Position numbers and translations under genes: made by a program | Shown here: positions 23,255 through 49,877 of the stretch, in pieces | Layout: each line of letters begins with the position of its first letter | Numbering within the stretch: the first letter of the stretch is position 1 | Notes under the pieces: model-generated | What the model saw: only the letters and a program-made list of their open reading frames with translations | Told to the model about the DNA's origin: nothing | Databases searched by the model: none | From: Promethearchaeota archaeon | GTDB lineage: Archaea; Asgardarchaeota; Lokiarchaeia; Sigyniarchaeales; SOKP01 | Direction: 5' to 3' | NCBI GenBank assembly: GCA_019058245.1 | Contig: JAHPZJ010000008.1 | Location: forward strand, 32,001 to 96,000 | DNA: 64,000 nucleotides

Positions 23255-24961
23255 ATAGGATTAAAATTAGCTTCGGGGCTTGCAATAACCTCTTTATTTG
23301 CCTTGATGTATGCTGTAATTTTCGTAGTAGGTGTTTGGTTCTTACCCTCGACCATATTTGGCTTACTCTTTATGGTGGGACTTACAATTCTAATTGTATT
23401 ATTTCAGTATGGAATATCTCCACTGTTAATTGGTTGGCTTTACAGAATAGATTGGATACCCTATGAGCAATTTGTAAGGCAATTTCCACATTTAGCAGAG
23501 TCACTCGAAAAAGTAGTTGCTTATAACCGAATTAAGATGCCAAGGCTCGGGATAATTCATGATCTCAATCCAAATGCTTTTACATATGGATGGACTAAAA
23601 ATTCAGCAAGAGTTGTTCTTACGGATGGGATTTTAAAATATTTAAACAAAAAAGAGCAAAATGCTGTGTTTTCACATGAGTTAGGGCATGTGGTTCACTC
23701 AGATTTCATTTTAATGACGGTAGTATTTGCAATTCCACTACTCTTATTAAGTGTCGCTCGATGGGCATATTATGCCAGCTTTTTTTCAAGGGGTAGTTCA
23801 AGAGATGATGAGGGTGCTTTACTTGGTATTGCTCTAATCGCTATAGCTGTATTATCTTACTTAAGTTATTACATAAGTTATTTGATATCACTTATAATAA
23901 GCAGAATTAGGGAATATTACGCGGATGAACATAGTGCAGAGGTTTTAGAGGATCCAAATGCATTAGCAACTGGACTTGTTAAGATAGCATATGGTTTATT
24001 GGTTGATGGTAATATTGAAGAAAGAAAGAAATCCCGTGTACTAGCACTGAGAGGATTAGGAATCTTTGATCATAGAGCGGCAAAAGGCTTGGGTATTATT
24101 AGTGTGGGTCAAACAGGAGTTCTTTCAATGGAAGCTATACAAAAAGCTGCCGCTTGGGATTTATATAATCCTTGGGCTAGATATTATCAAGTTTTCTCCA
24201 CTCATCCATTACCTGCAAAAAGAATAATGCGATTAAATATGTTATGCGAAATTTATGGTATTAAACCTGAAATTGATTTCTCTGATGCAAAAAGACTAAA
24301 AGAAGAACAAGCAGGAAAATCATTATGGGATGAATTTCTATGGGATGTCTTTATAAAAGCGCTCCCTACACTGGTTTTCATTGCTTTACTTGGTTTAACA
24401 ATAGTATGGATATTTGATCTAGTTTTTGATGCTTTCAATGTAGCTTTTCTGGCGCCCGTTTATGCAAACATGTGGCTCGTATGGGCAATCGGTTTTTATA
24501 TTATAGGAATTATGACAATTATCAAAACAGGATACATGTATAAAGGTGGTTTCGAAGATAAAACAGTACTGGACTTAGTTACTAACGTGAAAGTATCCCC
24601 TATAAGAACTATTCCAGCATTTCTGGAGGGAAAAATTGTTGGGAGAGGAATTCCGGGGTATTACTTCAGTGAGGATATGTACTTCCAAGATAACACAGGA
24701 TTGATGTATGTAGATTATCGATTTGGAATTGGAATAGCAGATCTTATATTCGCCCTTAGGACTGTTAATAAATTAATCGGTCAAAGGGTTAGAATTAAGG
24801 GATGGTATCGAAGAGGTCCAAGTCCTTATATTCAGGTAAATACTATATGGTCTGAATCAGGAACTCGACATAAAAATTATGCAAAGTCATTTAGGTACTT
24901 TTGGACAGTTCTAGCTTTTATCCTTGGCATAGGGTGTTTATATTTTTACTTTATGGGTTAA
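23255..24961 (+). CDS. htpX: HtpX/M48 zinc metalloprotease with C-terminal membrane-anchored extension
   Basis: PNAF, HELGH, REYYAD, STHP. Start proposed at ATA 23255 after a GGTGG SD (ORF track gives TTG 23303). Confidence 0.85.
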   Translation: MGLKLASGLAITSLFALMYAVIFVVGVWFLPSTIFGLLFMVGLTILIVLFQYGISPLLIGWLYRIDWIPYEQFVRQFPHLAESLEKVVAYNRIKMPRLGIIHDLNPNAFTYGWTKNSARVVLTDGILKYLNKKEQNAVFSHELGHVVHSDFILMTVVFAIPLLLLSVARWAYYASFFSRGSSRDDEGALLGIALIAIAVLSYLSYYISYLISLIISRIREYYADEHSAEVLEDPNALATGLVKIAYGLLVDGNIEERKKSRVLALRGLGIFDHRAAKGLGIISVGQTGVLSMEAIQKAAAWDLYNPWARYYQVFSTHPLPAKRIMRLNMLCEIYGIKPEIDFSDAKRLKEEQAGKSLWDEFLWDVFIKALPTLVFIALLGLTIVWIFDLVFDAFNVAFLAPVYANMWLVWAIGFYIIGIMTIIKTGYMYKGGFEDKTVLDLVTNVKVSPIRTIPAFLEGKIVGRGIPGYYFSEDMYFQDNTGLMYVDYRFGIGIADLIFALRTVNKLIGQRVRIKGWYRRGPSPYIQVNTIWSESGTRHKNYAKSFRYFWTVLAFILGIGCLYFYFMG

Positions 24962-26786: not shown

Positions 26787-27914
26787 ATGGAATTAATGAA
26801 TCTTTTTAGCCCTGAAAAAATAGCAAATGTTCAAATAAAAAATAGAATTGTGCGCTCCGCCACGTTCATGGCAAGTTCAGAAAAATATGGTTATGTTGGA
26901 CAGGATCTTATCAATATTAACAGTAAATTAGCAAGTGGGGGTACAGGTTTAATAATATCTGGTTATACAGCTGTAGATCCGGGTGGTACTGCGAGTCCAT
27001 ATCAGGAATGCTTATATGATGACTCTTTTATCTCAGGTCAAAAGAAATTGGTGAAAGCAGTTCATGAATACTCAGACGTAAAATTTGCACTTCAAATTGC
27101 CCATACAGGTCGTTTAGGTTATCATCCTAAATATCCAGCAGTAGCACCATCACCTATCCCCGTAAAGGAAACAGGTATAACACCACGAGAATTAACATCT
27201 GAAGAAATTAAAGAACTAATAAAGAAATTTATAGAGGCTGGAATTAGAGGGTATGAATGTGGCTATGATGTGGTTCAGTTACATGCCGCTCATGGATACT
27301 TTTTGAGTAATTTTATTTCACCATATACAAATAAGAGAACTGATGAATTCGGTGGAAATATTGAAAATAGAGCTAGAATTATAATTAATATATATAATGG
27401 TTTAAGAGATGAATTAGGTAAGAAATTTCCTATAATGATTAAACTCCAGATTGATGATTTTATCCCAGATGGGCTTCAATTTGAAGAAGGGATTAAATTT
27501 GCTGAATTATTCTCTGAAATTGGTTTTGATGCTATTGAACCAAGTGGAGGTAGTGAAGAAACAAGAGTGCTAACAAAAAAATCATATCCCTGTCTAATTA
27601 TTAAATCTTCTGATGATGAGAACTACTTTTTACCTTACGCCAAAAAAATAAAACCATTAATGAAGAATTGTAAATTAATTTTAGTAGGTGGTATTAGAGA
27701 TCCATTACAAGCTGAAAAAATCATTCAAGATAAAAATGCAGATTTTATTTCCTTATGTAGACCTTTAATATATGAACCAAATCTTCCAAATCGTTGGAAA
27801 GAAGGAGATCTTTCGCCAGCAAAATGCATTAGTTGCAATAATTGTTTTCCAAGATTTAGAGATGATGCAGTTTGTTGCGTAACTAAAAATCAGTTAGAAA
27901 AAAAAAAAAATTAA
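26787..27914 (+). CDS. NADH:flavin oxidoreductase (Old Yellow Enzyme family)
   Basis: KNRIVRSA, HAAHGY, NKRTDEFGG, C-terminal CISCNNC. Confidence 0.93.
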   Translation: MELMNLFSPEKIANVQIKNRIVRSATFMASSEKYGYVGQDLININSKLASGGTGLIISGYTAVDPGGTASPYQECLYDDSFISGQKKLVKAVHEYSDVKFALQIAHTGRLGYHPKYPAVAPSPIPVKETGITPRELTSEEIKELIKKFIEAGIRGYECGYDVVQLHAAHGYFLSNFISPYTNKRTDEFGGNIENRARIIINIYNGLRDELGKKFPIMIKLQIDDFIPDGLQFEEGIKFAELFSEIGFDAIEPSGGSEETRVLTKKSYPCLIIKSSDDENYFLPYAKKIKPLMKNCKLILVGGIRDPLQAEKIIQDKNADFISLCRPLIYEPNLPNRWKEGDLSPAKCISCNNCFPRFRDDAVCCVTKNQLEKKKN

Positions 27915-28082: not shown

Positions 28083-29207
28083 ATGGCATTGGAAACATTA
28101 TTTAGTCCAAAAAACATTAGAAACGTTCAAATAAAAAATCGCATAGTACGAAGTGCGACTTTTACTAATACTGCAGAGAAATATGGTTATATTGGAGATA
28201 GATTCATTGAACTTTATGAGACTTTAGCTGAAGGAGGTACTGGATTAATCATTACAGAAGCAACAGCAGTCGATCCAAGTGGAACTGGAGGTCCATATCA
28301 AGCATGTTTGTATGATAATTCACATAATCCTGGACACAAAAAATTAGTTAATAAAGTTCATGAATATAGTGATACAAAAATTGCTATTCAACTTGTACAT
28401 ACAGGTCGTTTAGGTTATCATCCTAAATATCCAACAGTCGCGCCATCACCTATTCATTCAGAAAGTACAGGGATTACACCAAGAGAATTATCTACTGAAG
28501 AGATTTATGAATTCATACAAATATTTGTTGCATCTGGTATAAGAGCTTATGAATGTGGATATGATATGGTACAACTTCACGCAGCTCATGGCTATTTTCT
28601 TTGTAATTTTATATCACCTTTTACTAATAAGCGAAATGATGAATTTGGTGGTTCAATCAAAAATAGGACTAAAATTTTGATAGACATATATAATGGACTA
28701 AGAGATGAAATCGGAAAGAATTTCCCTATTTTAATAAAACTCCAAGTTGTAGATGCCATTCCAAATGGCCTAATAGAGGAAGAAGGTATTAAACTTGCGA
28801 AAAACCTCGCTGAAATGGGTTTTGATGCAATTGAACCAAGTGGAGGAGGTAGAGAATCACAGATGTTTGAAAAAAATACTTTTCCCAGTAAAGTTGTTAA
28901 AAAACCTAAAGATGAAAACTACTTCTTACCAATAGCAAAAAAAATAAAACATAATTTGAAAAATTGTGCTTTAATACTTGTAGGAGGAATTAGAAATCCC
29001 ATCTCGGCAGAAAAGATACTACAAGATAATGAGGTTGATTTTATCTCATTGAGTAGGCCTTTAATTTATGAACCAGAACTTCCTAATCGCTGGCAAATGG
29101 GTGATAATTCACCAGCGAAATGCATAAGTTGTAATTCCTGCTATACGATTATGGAAAAAGGAGTTCCTGTTTATTGTGTAACTAAAAAGAATTTAGAGAA
29201 AAAATGA
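28083..29207 (+). CDS. NADH:flavin oxidoreductase (OYE family), tandem paralogue
   Basis: Same motifs as 26787; CISCNSC. Confidence 0.93.
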   Translation: MALETLFSPKNIRNVQIKNRIVRSATFTNTAEKYGYIGDRFIELYETLAEGGTGLIITEATAVDPSGTGGPYQACLYDNSHNPGHKKLVNKVHEYSDTKIAIQLVHTGRLGYHPKYPTVAPSPIHSESTGITPRELSTEEIYEFIQIFVASGIRAYECGYDMVQLHAAHGYFLCNFISPFTNKRNDEFGGSIKNRTKILIDIYNGLRDEIGKNFPILIKLQVVDAIPNGLIEEEGIKLAKNLAEMGFDAIEPSGGGRESQMFEKNTFPSKVVKKPKDENYFLPIAKKIKHNLKNCALILVGGIRNPISAEKILQDNEVDFISLSRPLIYEPELPNRWQMGDNSPAKCISCNSCYTIMEKGVPVYCVTKKNLEKK

Positions 29208-30818: not shown

Positions 30819-32030
30819 TTGTTATTCCATAAAATAATGGAAAAGTATAATATGGAAAGAAGTTATAAATCAAATATTTTTAAAATCTATTTTTTTTCGT
30901 TTATTTTAGGTATTCATACAGTTAGAGCTGTGTATATTCCATTTATGATGGATTGGGGGGGACTTTCATTTTTCCAAATCATGATTTTACAAAGTTACTT
31001 TACAGCAATGATCGTTATACTTGAAATTCCTTCTGGGGCAATTGCAGATCTCTTGGGGCGAAAAATAGCATTGATTTTATCCGCCTTTTCAATTGCTAGC
31101 GCAGCATTTACCTATAGTATCATTCCTAACTTTTTTTTGTTTATGCTTGCTGAAACTTTATGGGCTTTTGGTGTTGCATTAAGTTCTGGAACGAGTGACG
31201 CTTTTGTATATTTCTCTTTAAAGTCTTATGGTAAAGAAAAGAAACTTTCTACGATTTTGGGAAGATCTCAGATGATAAATTTGATTGCATTGACAATTTC
31301 TGCACCTATAGGTTCTCTTATTGCACAATTTATCTCTTTACAATTTACAATGACATGTTTGGCAATTATATATATTGGTGCCTTGATTGTAGCTCTTACA
31401 TTTAAAGAGCCAAAACTGATAGATAATTATTATAGACAGGAGCACTATTGGAAAATAATAATTTCTGGATTTAAAGAATTGAAAAAAAATAAAATACTTA
31501 GGATTTTAGCTTTTGATTTGGTTCCAATAAATGTCTTGATATTCTTTTTATTTTGGACATATCAAGTATACTTAGAGGCTATAAACATTCCAATATTCGT
31601 TTTTGGCTTTATCTTATCTCTAATGAATATTATAAATGCGATTTTTTCCTTATTAATCCCCTTTTTATTAAAGAAATCCTCCAATAAAAGGATGTTCTTA
31701 ATTCTACTCAATTTAATAAATGGTGTAGCTTTCATCTCATTGGGATTCACTAGAATCATTCCTATCGGTATTGTTATCCTTCTATCAATTGTAGCTTTTG
31801 GGTACACAAGATATTTTATATTTGTTGATGGGATAAATTTACAAATTGAATCTGAAAATAGAGCCACAGTCCTTAGCACAATAAATATGTTTGGGAGCCT
31901 TATTAGAGCGCTTATTTATCCTTTTGTTGGACTTATCGTAGAGTGGAGTGTGTTTGCGGTTTTTATTATAATAGGAATATTAATATTAGTCTTGACAATT
32001 TTCACTCGTTCTAAAAGTGAATTTCTTTAA
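30819..32030 (+). CDS. MFS transporter
   Basis: LEIPSGAIADLLGRK motif A, SGTSDA, RATVLS. Confidence 0.9.
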   Translation: MLFHKIMEKYNMERSYKSNIFKIYFFSFILGIHTVRAVYIPFMMDWGGLSFFQIMILQSYFTAMIVILEIPSGAIADLLGRKIALILSAFSIASAAFTYSIIPNFFLFMLAETLWAFGVALSSGTSDAFVYFSLKSYGKEKKLSTILGRSQMINLIALTISAPIGSLIAQFISLQFTMTCLAIIYIGALIVALTFKEPKLIDNYYRQEHYWKIIISGFKELKKNKILRILAFDLVPINVLIFFLFWTYQVYLEAINIPIFVFGFILSLMNIINAIFSLLIPFLLKKSSNKRMFLILLNLINGVAFISLGFTRIIPIGIVILLSIVAFGYTRYFIFVDGINLQIESENRATVLSTINMFGSLIRALIYPFVGLIVEWSVFAVFIIIGILILVLTIFTRSKSEFL

Positions 32031-40198: not shown

Positions 40199-41413
40199 TT
40201 AGAGAGATTCTGCAAATTCTTTTTTCTCTGGCCATTTCTTTACATAACAACGAACTGGAAAACCATTTGAAATTGCAGCTAGACAACGATTGCAAGAAAT
40301 ACAAGCTGCCTTTTCTTGTTTTCCTTCTTTAAAAGATTTAACTAAATAAGGTTCCCTAATGAATGGTCTTGCCATTGAAATAAAATCTGTAAAGCCTTTT
40401 TTTATAATTTCTTCAAAATAAGCTTTATTTCTCAAACCACCTACGACAACTATGGGTAATTTACCAACAATTTTTTTGATTTCTTTTGCAGCCTCAACAT
40501 TATAACCTTCCTCTAATTCAAATTTTCCTTTTATGTCTAAGAAAGATTTTTCTGCTAATGGTTTTATCTTATCTGGTAAAAATTCAGTAAATTCTTTAAC
40601 CGGAACAGTTCCACGACACATATTAAATATAGAGAAAGTTGTTGAACCTGCGCTAACCTCAATTCCATCAATACCTGAATTTTTAAGCCATTTTGCATAT
40701 TTACATGCTAAGGGGATATCGATTCCTTTTCTTGGAGTGTAATCTACAGTATTAAGTTTTAATAAAAGAGCCATATCTCTTGGAATGACTTTTTTAATGT
40801 TTATTATAAGTTCTTTGGCATATTTAAAACGATTTTCATCTGTTCCACCCCACTTATCTTTTCTACGATTATAAAAAGGAGAGAGAAACTGATTGATTAA
40901 GTATCCATGAGCACTATGCAATTGAATTGCATCCGCGCCTGCTTCAACTGTACGCCTAGCAGCCTTAATAAATGATTCAATTGACTCTTGGATATCTTCT
41001 TCGGTCATTTCTTTTGGTTTGGTAAAGGTTATTGGATTCATAACTTGTTTGGAGGGCCCCAAAGGAAGAGAACCTATTATTTCTTTATGTGTTTGCAATC
41101 CTCCATGTCCTATTTGAAATGCAACTTTTCCATCTTCTCTATGAATCATGTTAACCATTCGTTTTAGACTAGGAATTAAATCATCATTATGAATTCCTGT
41201 TTGATGTTTGGATATCTGTCCTAAAGGATGCACATACATAAAGCCTGTAATAATTAAACCAATTTTACCTTTAGCAAGAGTGCTAAAAAGTTTAATAAGT
41301 TGTTCAGATACTTCACCAGATTCATGAGCCAAATTGGTAACTACTGCTGAACGTACAAAACGATTTTTTACTTCCATTTTTCCAATTTTCATTGATTTAA
41401 ATAAAATTGAAAT
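40199..41413 (-). CDS. NADH:flavin oxidoreductase (OYE family), third paralogue
   Basis: KNRFVRSA, HSAHGY, CISCNRC. Start proposed at ATT 41413 (ORF track gives ATG 41392). Confidence 0.9.
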   Translation of the reverse strand: MSILFKSMKIGKMEVKNRFVRSAVVTNLAHESGEVSEQLIKLFSTLAKGKIGLIITGFMYVHPLGQISKHQTGIHNDDLIPSLKRMVNMIHREDGKVAFQIGHGGLQTHKEIIGSLPLGPSKQVMNPITFTKPKEMTEEDIQESIESFIKAARRTVEAGADAIQLHSAHGYLINQFLSPFYNRRKDKWGGTDENRFKYAKELIINIKKVIPRDMALLLKLNTVDYTPRKGIDIPLACKYAKWLKNSGIDGIEVSAGSTTFSIFNMCRGTVPVKEFTEFLPDKIKPLAEKSFLDIKGKFELEEGYNVEAAKEIKKIVGKLPIVVVGGLRNKAYFEEIIKKGFTDFISMARPFIREPYLVKSFKEGKQEKAACISCNRCLAAISNGFPVRCYVKKWPEKKEFAESL

Positions 41414-41649
41414 AATTTATCACCATTTTTACTTATTTCATAAATTTTTTTTTTATTTTGATATCCCTTAGTAAATATAACAGTTAATTAATAGTTGGGG
41501 ATACTTATGACATTTAAAATTCTTAGATAACTTTATTATCTAATTTTTAATGATTTCTTTTATTTAAATAAAGAAAACACACTTTTTAATTAAAGTTAAA
41601 CCTTTAAATTGTTTAATGAAATTTAATATAACAGAATAATTAATCTATT

Positions 41650-49655: not shown

Positions 49656-49877
49656 TTATATTTGATTCTCCATTTCGATTTTACTATTGTTTATTTCATT
49701 AGGAATATTCCTTTCAATTCGATATTTAATTAAAAAACCAAGATTCGTGGCTAAAGAAATTCCTAGAAACATTCCTTCTAAAAAGCTAATTAATGGTAGA
49801 TCTGGCAAGAACATACTCATTATTAGAGATATTGCTAAAGAACTTGTTCCAATGATATACATAAATTCTTTCTTCAT
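49656..49877 (-). CDS. Small two-TM membrane protein
   Basis: FLEGMFLGISL helical hairpin. Confidence 0.55.
   Translation of the reverse strand: MKKEFMYIIGTSSLAISLIMSMFLPDLPLISFLEGMFLGISLATNLGFLIKYRIERNIPNEINNSKIEMENQI

Follow-up and report, generated by a model that had tools for sequence, protein, structure and literature searches.

A gene for a predicted Old Yellow Enzyme-type FMN oxidoreductase in an Asgard archaeon is very probably translated from an AUU codon at 41413-41411 on the minus strand, which would be positioned by a Shine-Dalgarno (SD) motif and read by the initiator Met-tRNA. The gene lies in a window of 64,000 nucleotides (positions 32,001 to 96,000 of contig JAHPZJ010000008.1, assembly GCA_019058245.1), to which all coordinates refer unless a genome is named. 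The source genome (G000) is a MAG of 3.09 Mb in 31 contigs, with 29% GC and 76% completeness. Counted from its first canonical start codon, the open reading frame of the gene covers 40199-41392 (-). The ORF map places a divergent gene upstream and a convergent gene downstream; the gene is thus monocistronic and cannot be translationally coupled to a gene upstream. The elements of the gene, and its two paralogues in the window, are as follows.

41419-41424, minus strand: Shine-Dalgarno motif GGTGAT, 6 nt contained in the SD consensus GGAGGTGATC, with 6 nt between GGTGA and the proposed start codon
41417-41422, minus strand: two in-frame stops, TGA (within the SD motif) and TAA, closing the reading frame upstream
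41414-41416, minus strand: first ATT, 3 nt after GGTGA; not the homologue of the orthologues' ATG, probably spacer
41411-41413, minus strand: proposed start codon ATT (AUU), 6 nt after GGTGA, placed by codon homology with the orthologues
41393-41410, minus strand: codons 2-7 (S I L F K S), a conserved N-terminal peptide that is lost if translation starts at ATG 41392
41390-41392, minus strand: first ATG, an internal Met8 under the proposed start, replaced in 7 of the 16 orthologues that start at ATT, ATA or ATC
40199-41413, minus strand: full coding sequence of 404 codons plus stop, predicted Old Yellow Enzyme-type FMN oxidoreductase (PF00724, YqjM 1z41, AlphaFold2 model)
26787-27914, plus strand: paralogue 1, ATG start, N-terminus MELMNLFSPEK (MELMNLFSPEKIANVQIKNR)
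28083-29207, plus strand: paralogue 2, ATG start, N-terminus MALETLFSPKN (MALETLFSPKNIRNVQIKNR)

Read along the minus strand, the start region consists of GGTGA (41424-41420), TAA (41419-41417), ATT (41416-41414), a second ATT (41413-41411), the codons TCA ATT TTA TTT AAA TCA, and ATG (41392-41390). These are the letters given in a preliminary description of the window, which had pointed to the in-frame TAA; a TGA stands in the same frame, the codons ahead of the first ATT being TGG, TGA (41422-41420) and TAA, and translation gives ...KW, two stops and then IISILF. The frame is therefore closed upstream of the ATT codons, and no ATG, GTG or TTG occurs between the stops and ATG 41392. With 6 nt between them, GGTGA and the second ATT have the spacing that is most common for GGTGA and ATG in this genome. 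We rejected the first ATT (41416) as a start because it is only 3 nt from GGTGA and its position is not conserved, reading AAG, CGG, TAT, AAT and others in the orthologues. Neither the GTG within GGTGA nor ATG 41426 is in frame with the gene, and both were rejected as starts. This out-of-frame ATG abuts the SD motif directly (ATGGTGA) and opens a 9-codon frame at 41397-41426 (-); the ATGGTGA arrangement was seen again in G024, G089 and G097, and the 9-codon frame is not conserved.

Orthologues were searched for in the genus and then in the family (135 genomes), which gave 30 sequences of 50-94% identity from four genera of this family of Promethearchaeota (Loki-type Asgard archaea). At the codon homologous to the second ATT, 13 orthologues have ATG, one has GTG, 11 have ATT, four have ATA and one has ATC, so that a canonical start stands at this very codon in 14/30, and the N-terminal S-I-L-F comes next in nearly all of them. 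Six switches between canonical and ATH (ATT, ATA or ATC) codons were counted on a maximum-likelihood protein tree, at least four of which are forced by well-supported branches; the ATH start is therefore not one inherited oddity. Among the 16 ATH orthologues, ATG is kept at the position of ATG8 in 9 and is replaced by ACG, AAG, ATA, ATT or AAT in 7, and some ATG-start orthologues have CTG, TAT, ATA or TTC there. In G118 and G112 the next ATG comes only at codon 28, and the only other canonical codon before it is a TTG (codon 13) or a GTG (codon 20). Some of the orthologues show changes elsewhere in the frame. The one in G024 (contig C10, L097, 94% identical) has TAG instead of TGG (Trp) at codon 394, which trims the last 11 residues and is probably harmless, as other orthologues end near there. 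The orthologue in G049 (L123) has a stop at codon 87 and that in G014 (L122) a frameshift near its 3' end, and both may be pseudogenes or assembly errors.

Pairwise identity was averaged over the 15 ATH orthologues with enough upstream DNA. It was 44% from -45 to -12, 80% over the five SD bases and 39% in the 6-nt spacer, and reached 100% at positions 1-2 of the start codon; in codons 2-5 it was 98% at positions 1 and 2, and 61% at position 3. Codons 2-5 vary synonymously only (TCA/TCT/TCG, ATT/ATA, TTA/TTG/CTT, TTT/TTC), and they do so across branches of 0.1-0.4 substitutions per site, with spacer and upstream DNA at random-level identity. Because these codons change only synonymously, the alignment indicates that protein-coding constraint starts exactly at the ATH codon.

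The ATH codon is also coupled to the SD motif. At 4-6 nt upstream, the motif is a perfect GGTGA or GGAGA in 15/15 assessable ATH orthologues, and a perfect motif is present in only 2/14 of those with a canonical start; the spacer is exactly 6 nt in 13/15 of the former, and the remaining canonical-start orthologues have a degenerate motif at the same place (GGGCGA, AGGCGA, AATGAT) or nothing. Fisher's test gives p = 1.8e-6 for this coupling, in a set of related genomes that are not independent, and the switch count on the tree is for that reason the safer statement. The pattern is as expected if a weak start codon needs a strong SD as an offset. In the proposed mechanism, GGUGAU in the mRNA would pair with the 3' end of 16S rRNA and position the small ribosomal subunit, which would place the AUU 6 nt downstream in the P site. 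The initiator Met-tRNA would then pair with AUU through a third-position mismatch, with AUU presumably read as Met, and the product would begin Met-Ser-Ile-Leu-Phe. The strong SD would compensate for the weak codon, as suggested by its decay in orthologues with ATG at the same codon. Since the SD has decayed where ATG is present, start codon and SD would jointly set the initiation rate, from which we infer a tuning of expression. The suggestion of AUU initiation in the preliminary description is thus supported by the ATG and GTG codons of orthologues at the second ATT, by coding-type conservation from that codon onwards and by the strict coupling to the SD.

The most obvious rival is translation from the first ATG (41392), in which case the SILFKS codons would be an untranslated relic of an ancestral, ATG-started N-terminus. 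This ATG is the first canonical start in frame, most of the TIM barrel would stay, and a modelled strand (residues 8-10, AlphaFold2) begins at Met8. We nevertheless regard it as quite improbable, as GGTGA is 27 nt away from this ATG, far beyond the 4-9 nt range of ATG starts in the genome, and a protein starting there would lose the invariant Phe5 from a Met8 that is itself missing in 7/16 ATH orthologues. It would also leave unexplained why codons 2-5 change only synonymously next to a spacer and upstream DNA at random-level identity. A leaderless mRNA beginning at ATG 41392 was likewise rejected on the orthologue data. The same ATG counts against AUU as the only start, since it lies just 7 codons downstream in this genome and could act as a second, minor one. 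Under such dual use, AUU would give the full-length enzyme and leaky passage to AUG8 a minor, shorter isoform. Near-cognate starts are leaky in other systems (PMC13009471), and ATG stands at codon 8 in 9/16 ATH orthologues; yet ATG8 has no SD in range, and because Met8 is not conserved, no selected second isoform is indicated. We give this reading very little credence.

The remaining alternatives are scarcely credible on the comparative data. The short frame from ATG 41426 overlaps the SD, spans 9 codons and ends at TAA 41399-41397, 4 nt before ATG 41392; ribosomes translating it might shift by +1 into the main frame, or terminate and reinitiate at ATG 41392. But this ATG has no SD of its own and is missing in most orthologues, the corresponding frame in G089 stops after 3 codons, before the ATT, and neither a conserved upstream frame nor a shift site was seen in relatives; nor would the short frame explain the ATG at the ATT-homologous codon in 13 orthologues. 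An equally slim chance attaches to an assembly or sequencing error that turned a true ATG into ATT, or to a gene decaying into a pseudogene. Such a reading could draw on the incompleteness of the 76%-complete MAG and on the broken look of the G049 and G014 orthologues, but the frame here is intact over 404 codons with invariant catalytic and Cys residues, and sequencing error is excluded because the ATH codon is common to 16 independently assembled genomes. Initiation at AUU 41413-41411 remains our preferred reading.

The protein itself is a clear member of its family. It matches PF00724 (Oxidored_FMN) with 208.7 bits (cut-off 27; E = 1.9e-61), and the alignment begins at profile position 2, at the Leu upstream of ATG 41392. 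This fits the earlier claim that a conserved LF lies upstream of the first ATG, as does the invariant Phe5 in 29 sequences. YqjM (PDB 1z41) was matched with E = 8e-47; its Leu5 aligns with Leu4 here, so the ATT start gives an N-terminus of family-normal length. An AlphaFold2 model computed on the 29-sequence alignment (A1) has a mean pLDDT of 92, and of 93 for residues 1-10. F5, N17, R21, H166 and H169 are invariant in that alignment, paralogues included, as are the Cys residues; the N-terminal LF...NR segment is thus found together with the active-site His pair, and only the ATT start includes the LF. The likeness to the N-termini of the paralogues in the window, which the preliminary description had drawn on, is borne out by their starts MELMNLFSPEK and MALETLFSPKN. 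The protein resembles the YqjM-type (thermophilic-like) Old Yellow Enzymes in its FMN TIM-barrel family, in its N-terminal LF..(I/L)..NR segment, in near-equal N-terminal length and in its invariant His-x-x-His pair. Unlike them, it carries a C-terminal CxxCxxCx11C motif (C371, C374, C377 and C389; residues 371-389, within 40199-40330, minus strand), which follows the FMN barrel and is invariant in all orthologues and both paralogues. From a reading of the motif, we take it to resemble the 4Fe-4S site of 2,4-dienoyl-CoA reductase and trimethylamine dehydrogenase; in contrast to those enzymes, the proteins here have about 400 residues and lack the FAD/NAD(P) domains.

We then considered ATH starts across the whole genome. 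The 5-mers enriched upstream of first ATGs in G000 are sub-windows of GGAGGTGATC, with a spacing mode of 6 nt after GGTGA and a GGTGA-to-ATG range of 4-9 nt. As 16S rRNA (RF01959) was not found in the 76%-complete MAG, the anti-SD is deduced from this k-mer enrichment only. For every open frame of 100 codons or more, codons were counted from its 5' end up to the first canonical start. An SD spacing of 6 nt was found for ATG 45 times, TTG 14, GTG 6, ATA 26, ATT 19 and ATC 7, and for the AT-only control codons AAA 16, AAT 10, TTT 4, TTA 0 and TAT 2. The relation of ATH to controls was reversed at spacings 0, 3, 9 and 12, which are frame-equivalent. The preliminary description had held that a lack of such genome-wide enrichment would speak against AUU initiation; the count gave an odds ratio of 3.8 at the SD optimum (ATH vs AT-only controls, spacing 6 vs 0/3/9/12, p = 2.8e-7). 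Scaled by the control codons, the excess at spacing 5-7 is about 55 ATH sites, compared with 160 canonical SD-led starts, which corresponds to an estimated quarter or so of the strongly SD-led starts and about 2% of ORFs.

In 8/10 candidates checked against Pfam, 2-21 residues separate the ATH codon from the beginning of the domain, and the next canonical start comes only far downstream of that. These eight genes encode uL16, L21e, a class I aminoacyl-tRNA synthetase, ThiF, ApbA, an aldo/keto reductase (AKR), a Ras-type GTPase and Usp (L154-L162; G000 C13:16313, C30:43198, C31:10373, C20:81931, C8:1077, C8:130565, C15:76296 and C28:161275). The counts and domain boundaries indicate that ATT, ATA and ATC starts form a regular minority class in this lineage and not an isolated exception. 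The earlier remark that natural AUU starts are established but rare, as in E. coli infC, understates the use of AUH codons here. Against this background, the oxidoreductase gene is a well-supported case of lineage-wide ATH starts, with an unusually clear series of orthologues.

Two other frames in the window have a similar arrangement. An M48 peptidase ORF runs from 23255 to 24961 (+), with PF01435 at residues 77-328, and shows AGGTGG-taaatt-ATA; the next canonical codon, a TTG, comes 16 codons later and within a hydrophobic stretch, and the gene likely starts at ATA. The preliminary description had called the context of the oxidoreductase start nearly the same as that of this gene (htpX), which is roughly correct. 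At 49659 (-), GGAGA followed by 7 nt and ATA opens a 105-codon frame in which the next ATG appears 15 codons further on; this may be another ATH start.

Components of the initiation machinery were searched for in the same genomes. aIF1 (PF01253) was not found in the incomplete MAG G000, and the aIF1 genes of its relatives were studied instead. In 27/27 readable genomes of the genus, the aIF1 (SUI1) frame has no ATG at all (L124-L151, e.g. L139:1477-1791, minus strand); a conserved ATT lies 9 nt after AGGTTGTGA, and the first canonical codon, a TTG, is reached only past the N-terminal Cys knuckle. Elsewhere in the order, other families have an aIF1 that starts with TTG (G032, G025) or ATG (G038), and the frame in G030 has no canonical start and probably begins at ATA. 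Bacterial IF3 (infC) is AUU-initiated and autoregulated, and eIF1 is likewise autoregulated through a poor AUG context. By analogy, an AUU-started aIF1 would fit an infC-like autoregulatory loop. Sulfolobus aIF1 rejects AUU in vitro (reviewed in PMC4705826), and efficient use of AUU here would therefore need either tolerance of a low output or a relaxed checkpoint. No tRNA-Met was present among the ARAGORN calls (6 tRNAs, or 19 with introns allowed) or the 17 RF00005 matches in the MAG, and a pattern search of the MAG for the initiator anticodon stem found nothing. With introns allowed, ARAGORN also called a tRNA with anticodon CTA ('Pyl') at G000:C27:39848-39949 (+), where RF00005 matches with 40 bits; possibly an intron-bearing tRNA was parsed wrongly here.

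Comparable starts have been described in bacteria. E. coli infC starts at AUU (PMC4705826), and in S. aureus infC (AUA), cvfC1 (AUU), ccpN (AUA) and citZ (AUA) have near-cognate starts behind strong or extended SD motifs, with AUU and AUA starts giving about 10-30% of the AUG output in reporters (PMC13009471). The gene studied here resembles infC, cvfC1, ccpN and citZ in having AUU or AUA at proper spacing behind a strong SD, in the joint conservation of codon and SD among relatives and in a presumed reduced, tunable output. It differs from them in belonging to an archaeon with eukaryote-type factors (aIF1, aIF2) and no IF3, in being one of an estimated 2% of genes, housekeeping genes included, and not of a handful of regulatory genes, and in that a single orthologous site can hold ATG or any of the three AUH codons. 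As with archaeal GUG and UUG starts (PMC4705826, PMC7531240), SD-led initiation would tolerate an initiator anticodon mismatch, but with AUH it is the third codon position that is mismatched and not the first. The archaeal literature that we searched treats AUU as a codon rejected by archaeal aIF1, unlike the use of AUU proposed here, and our limited literature search found no published report of AUH starts in Asgard archaea.

A wider reading, about which we are slightly more doubtful than confident, is that AUH about 6 nt behind a perfect SD serves as a regular start signal in the family, in about 2% of genes including those for ribosomal proteins. Genes may shuttle between an ATG with a weak SD or none and an AUH with a perfect SD, and so adjust their expression like a rheostat, and aIF1 may be AUU-initiated throughout the genus. 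If true, the lineage closest to eukaryotes would have its own archaeal version of two known loops, that of bacterial infC and the poor-context loop of eukaryotic eIF1. Gene finders that admit only ATG, GTG and TTG would shorten or miss such genes in Asgard genomes; here 7 residues are lost, an invariant Phe among them, and elsewhere a ribosomal protein loses half its length or a GTPase its P-loop. Such start miscalls would distort the protein catalogues used in work on eukaryogenesis. The orthologue series may be regarded as a natural experiment that sets SD strength against start-codon identity where the initiation factors of an archaeon are of the eukaryote type. Combined with the putative AUU start of aIF1, the series would offer a testable route to how start-codon stringency arose in the archaeal relatives of eukaryotes.
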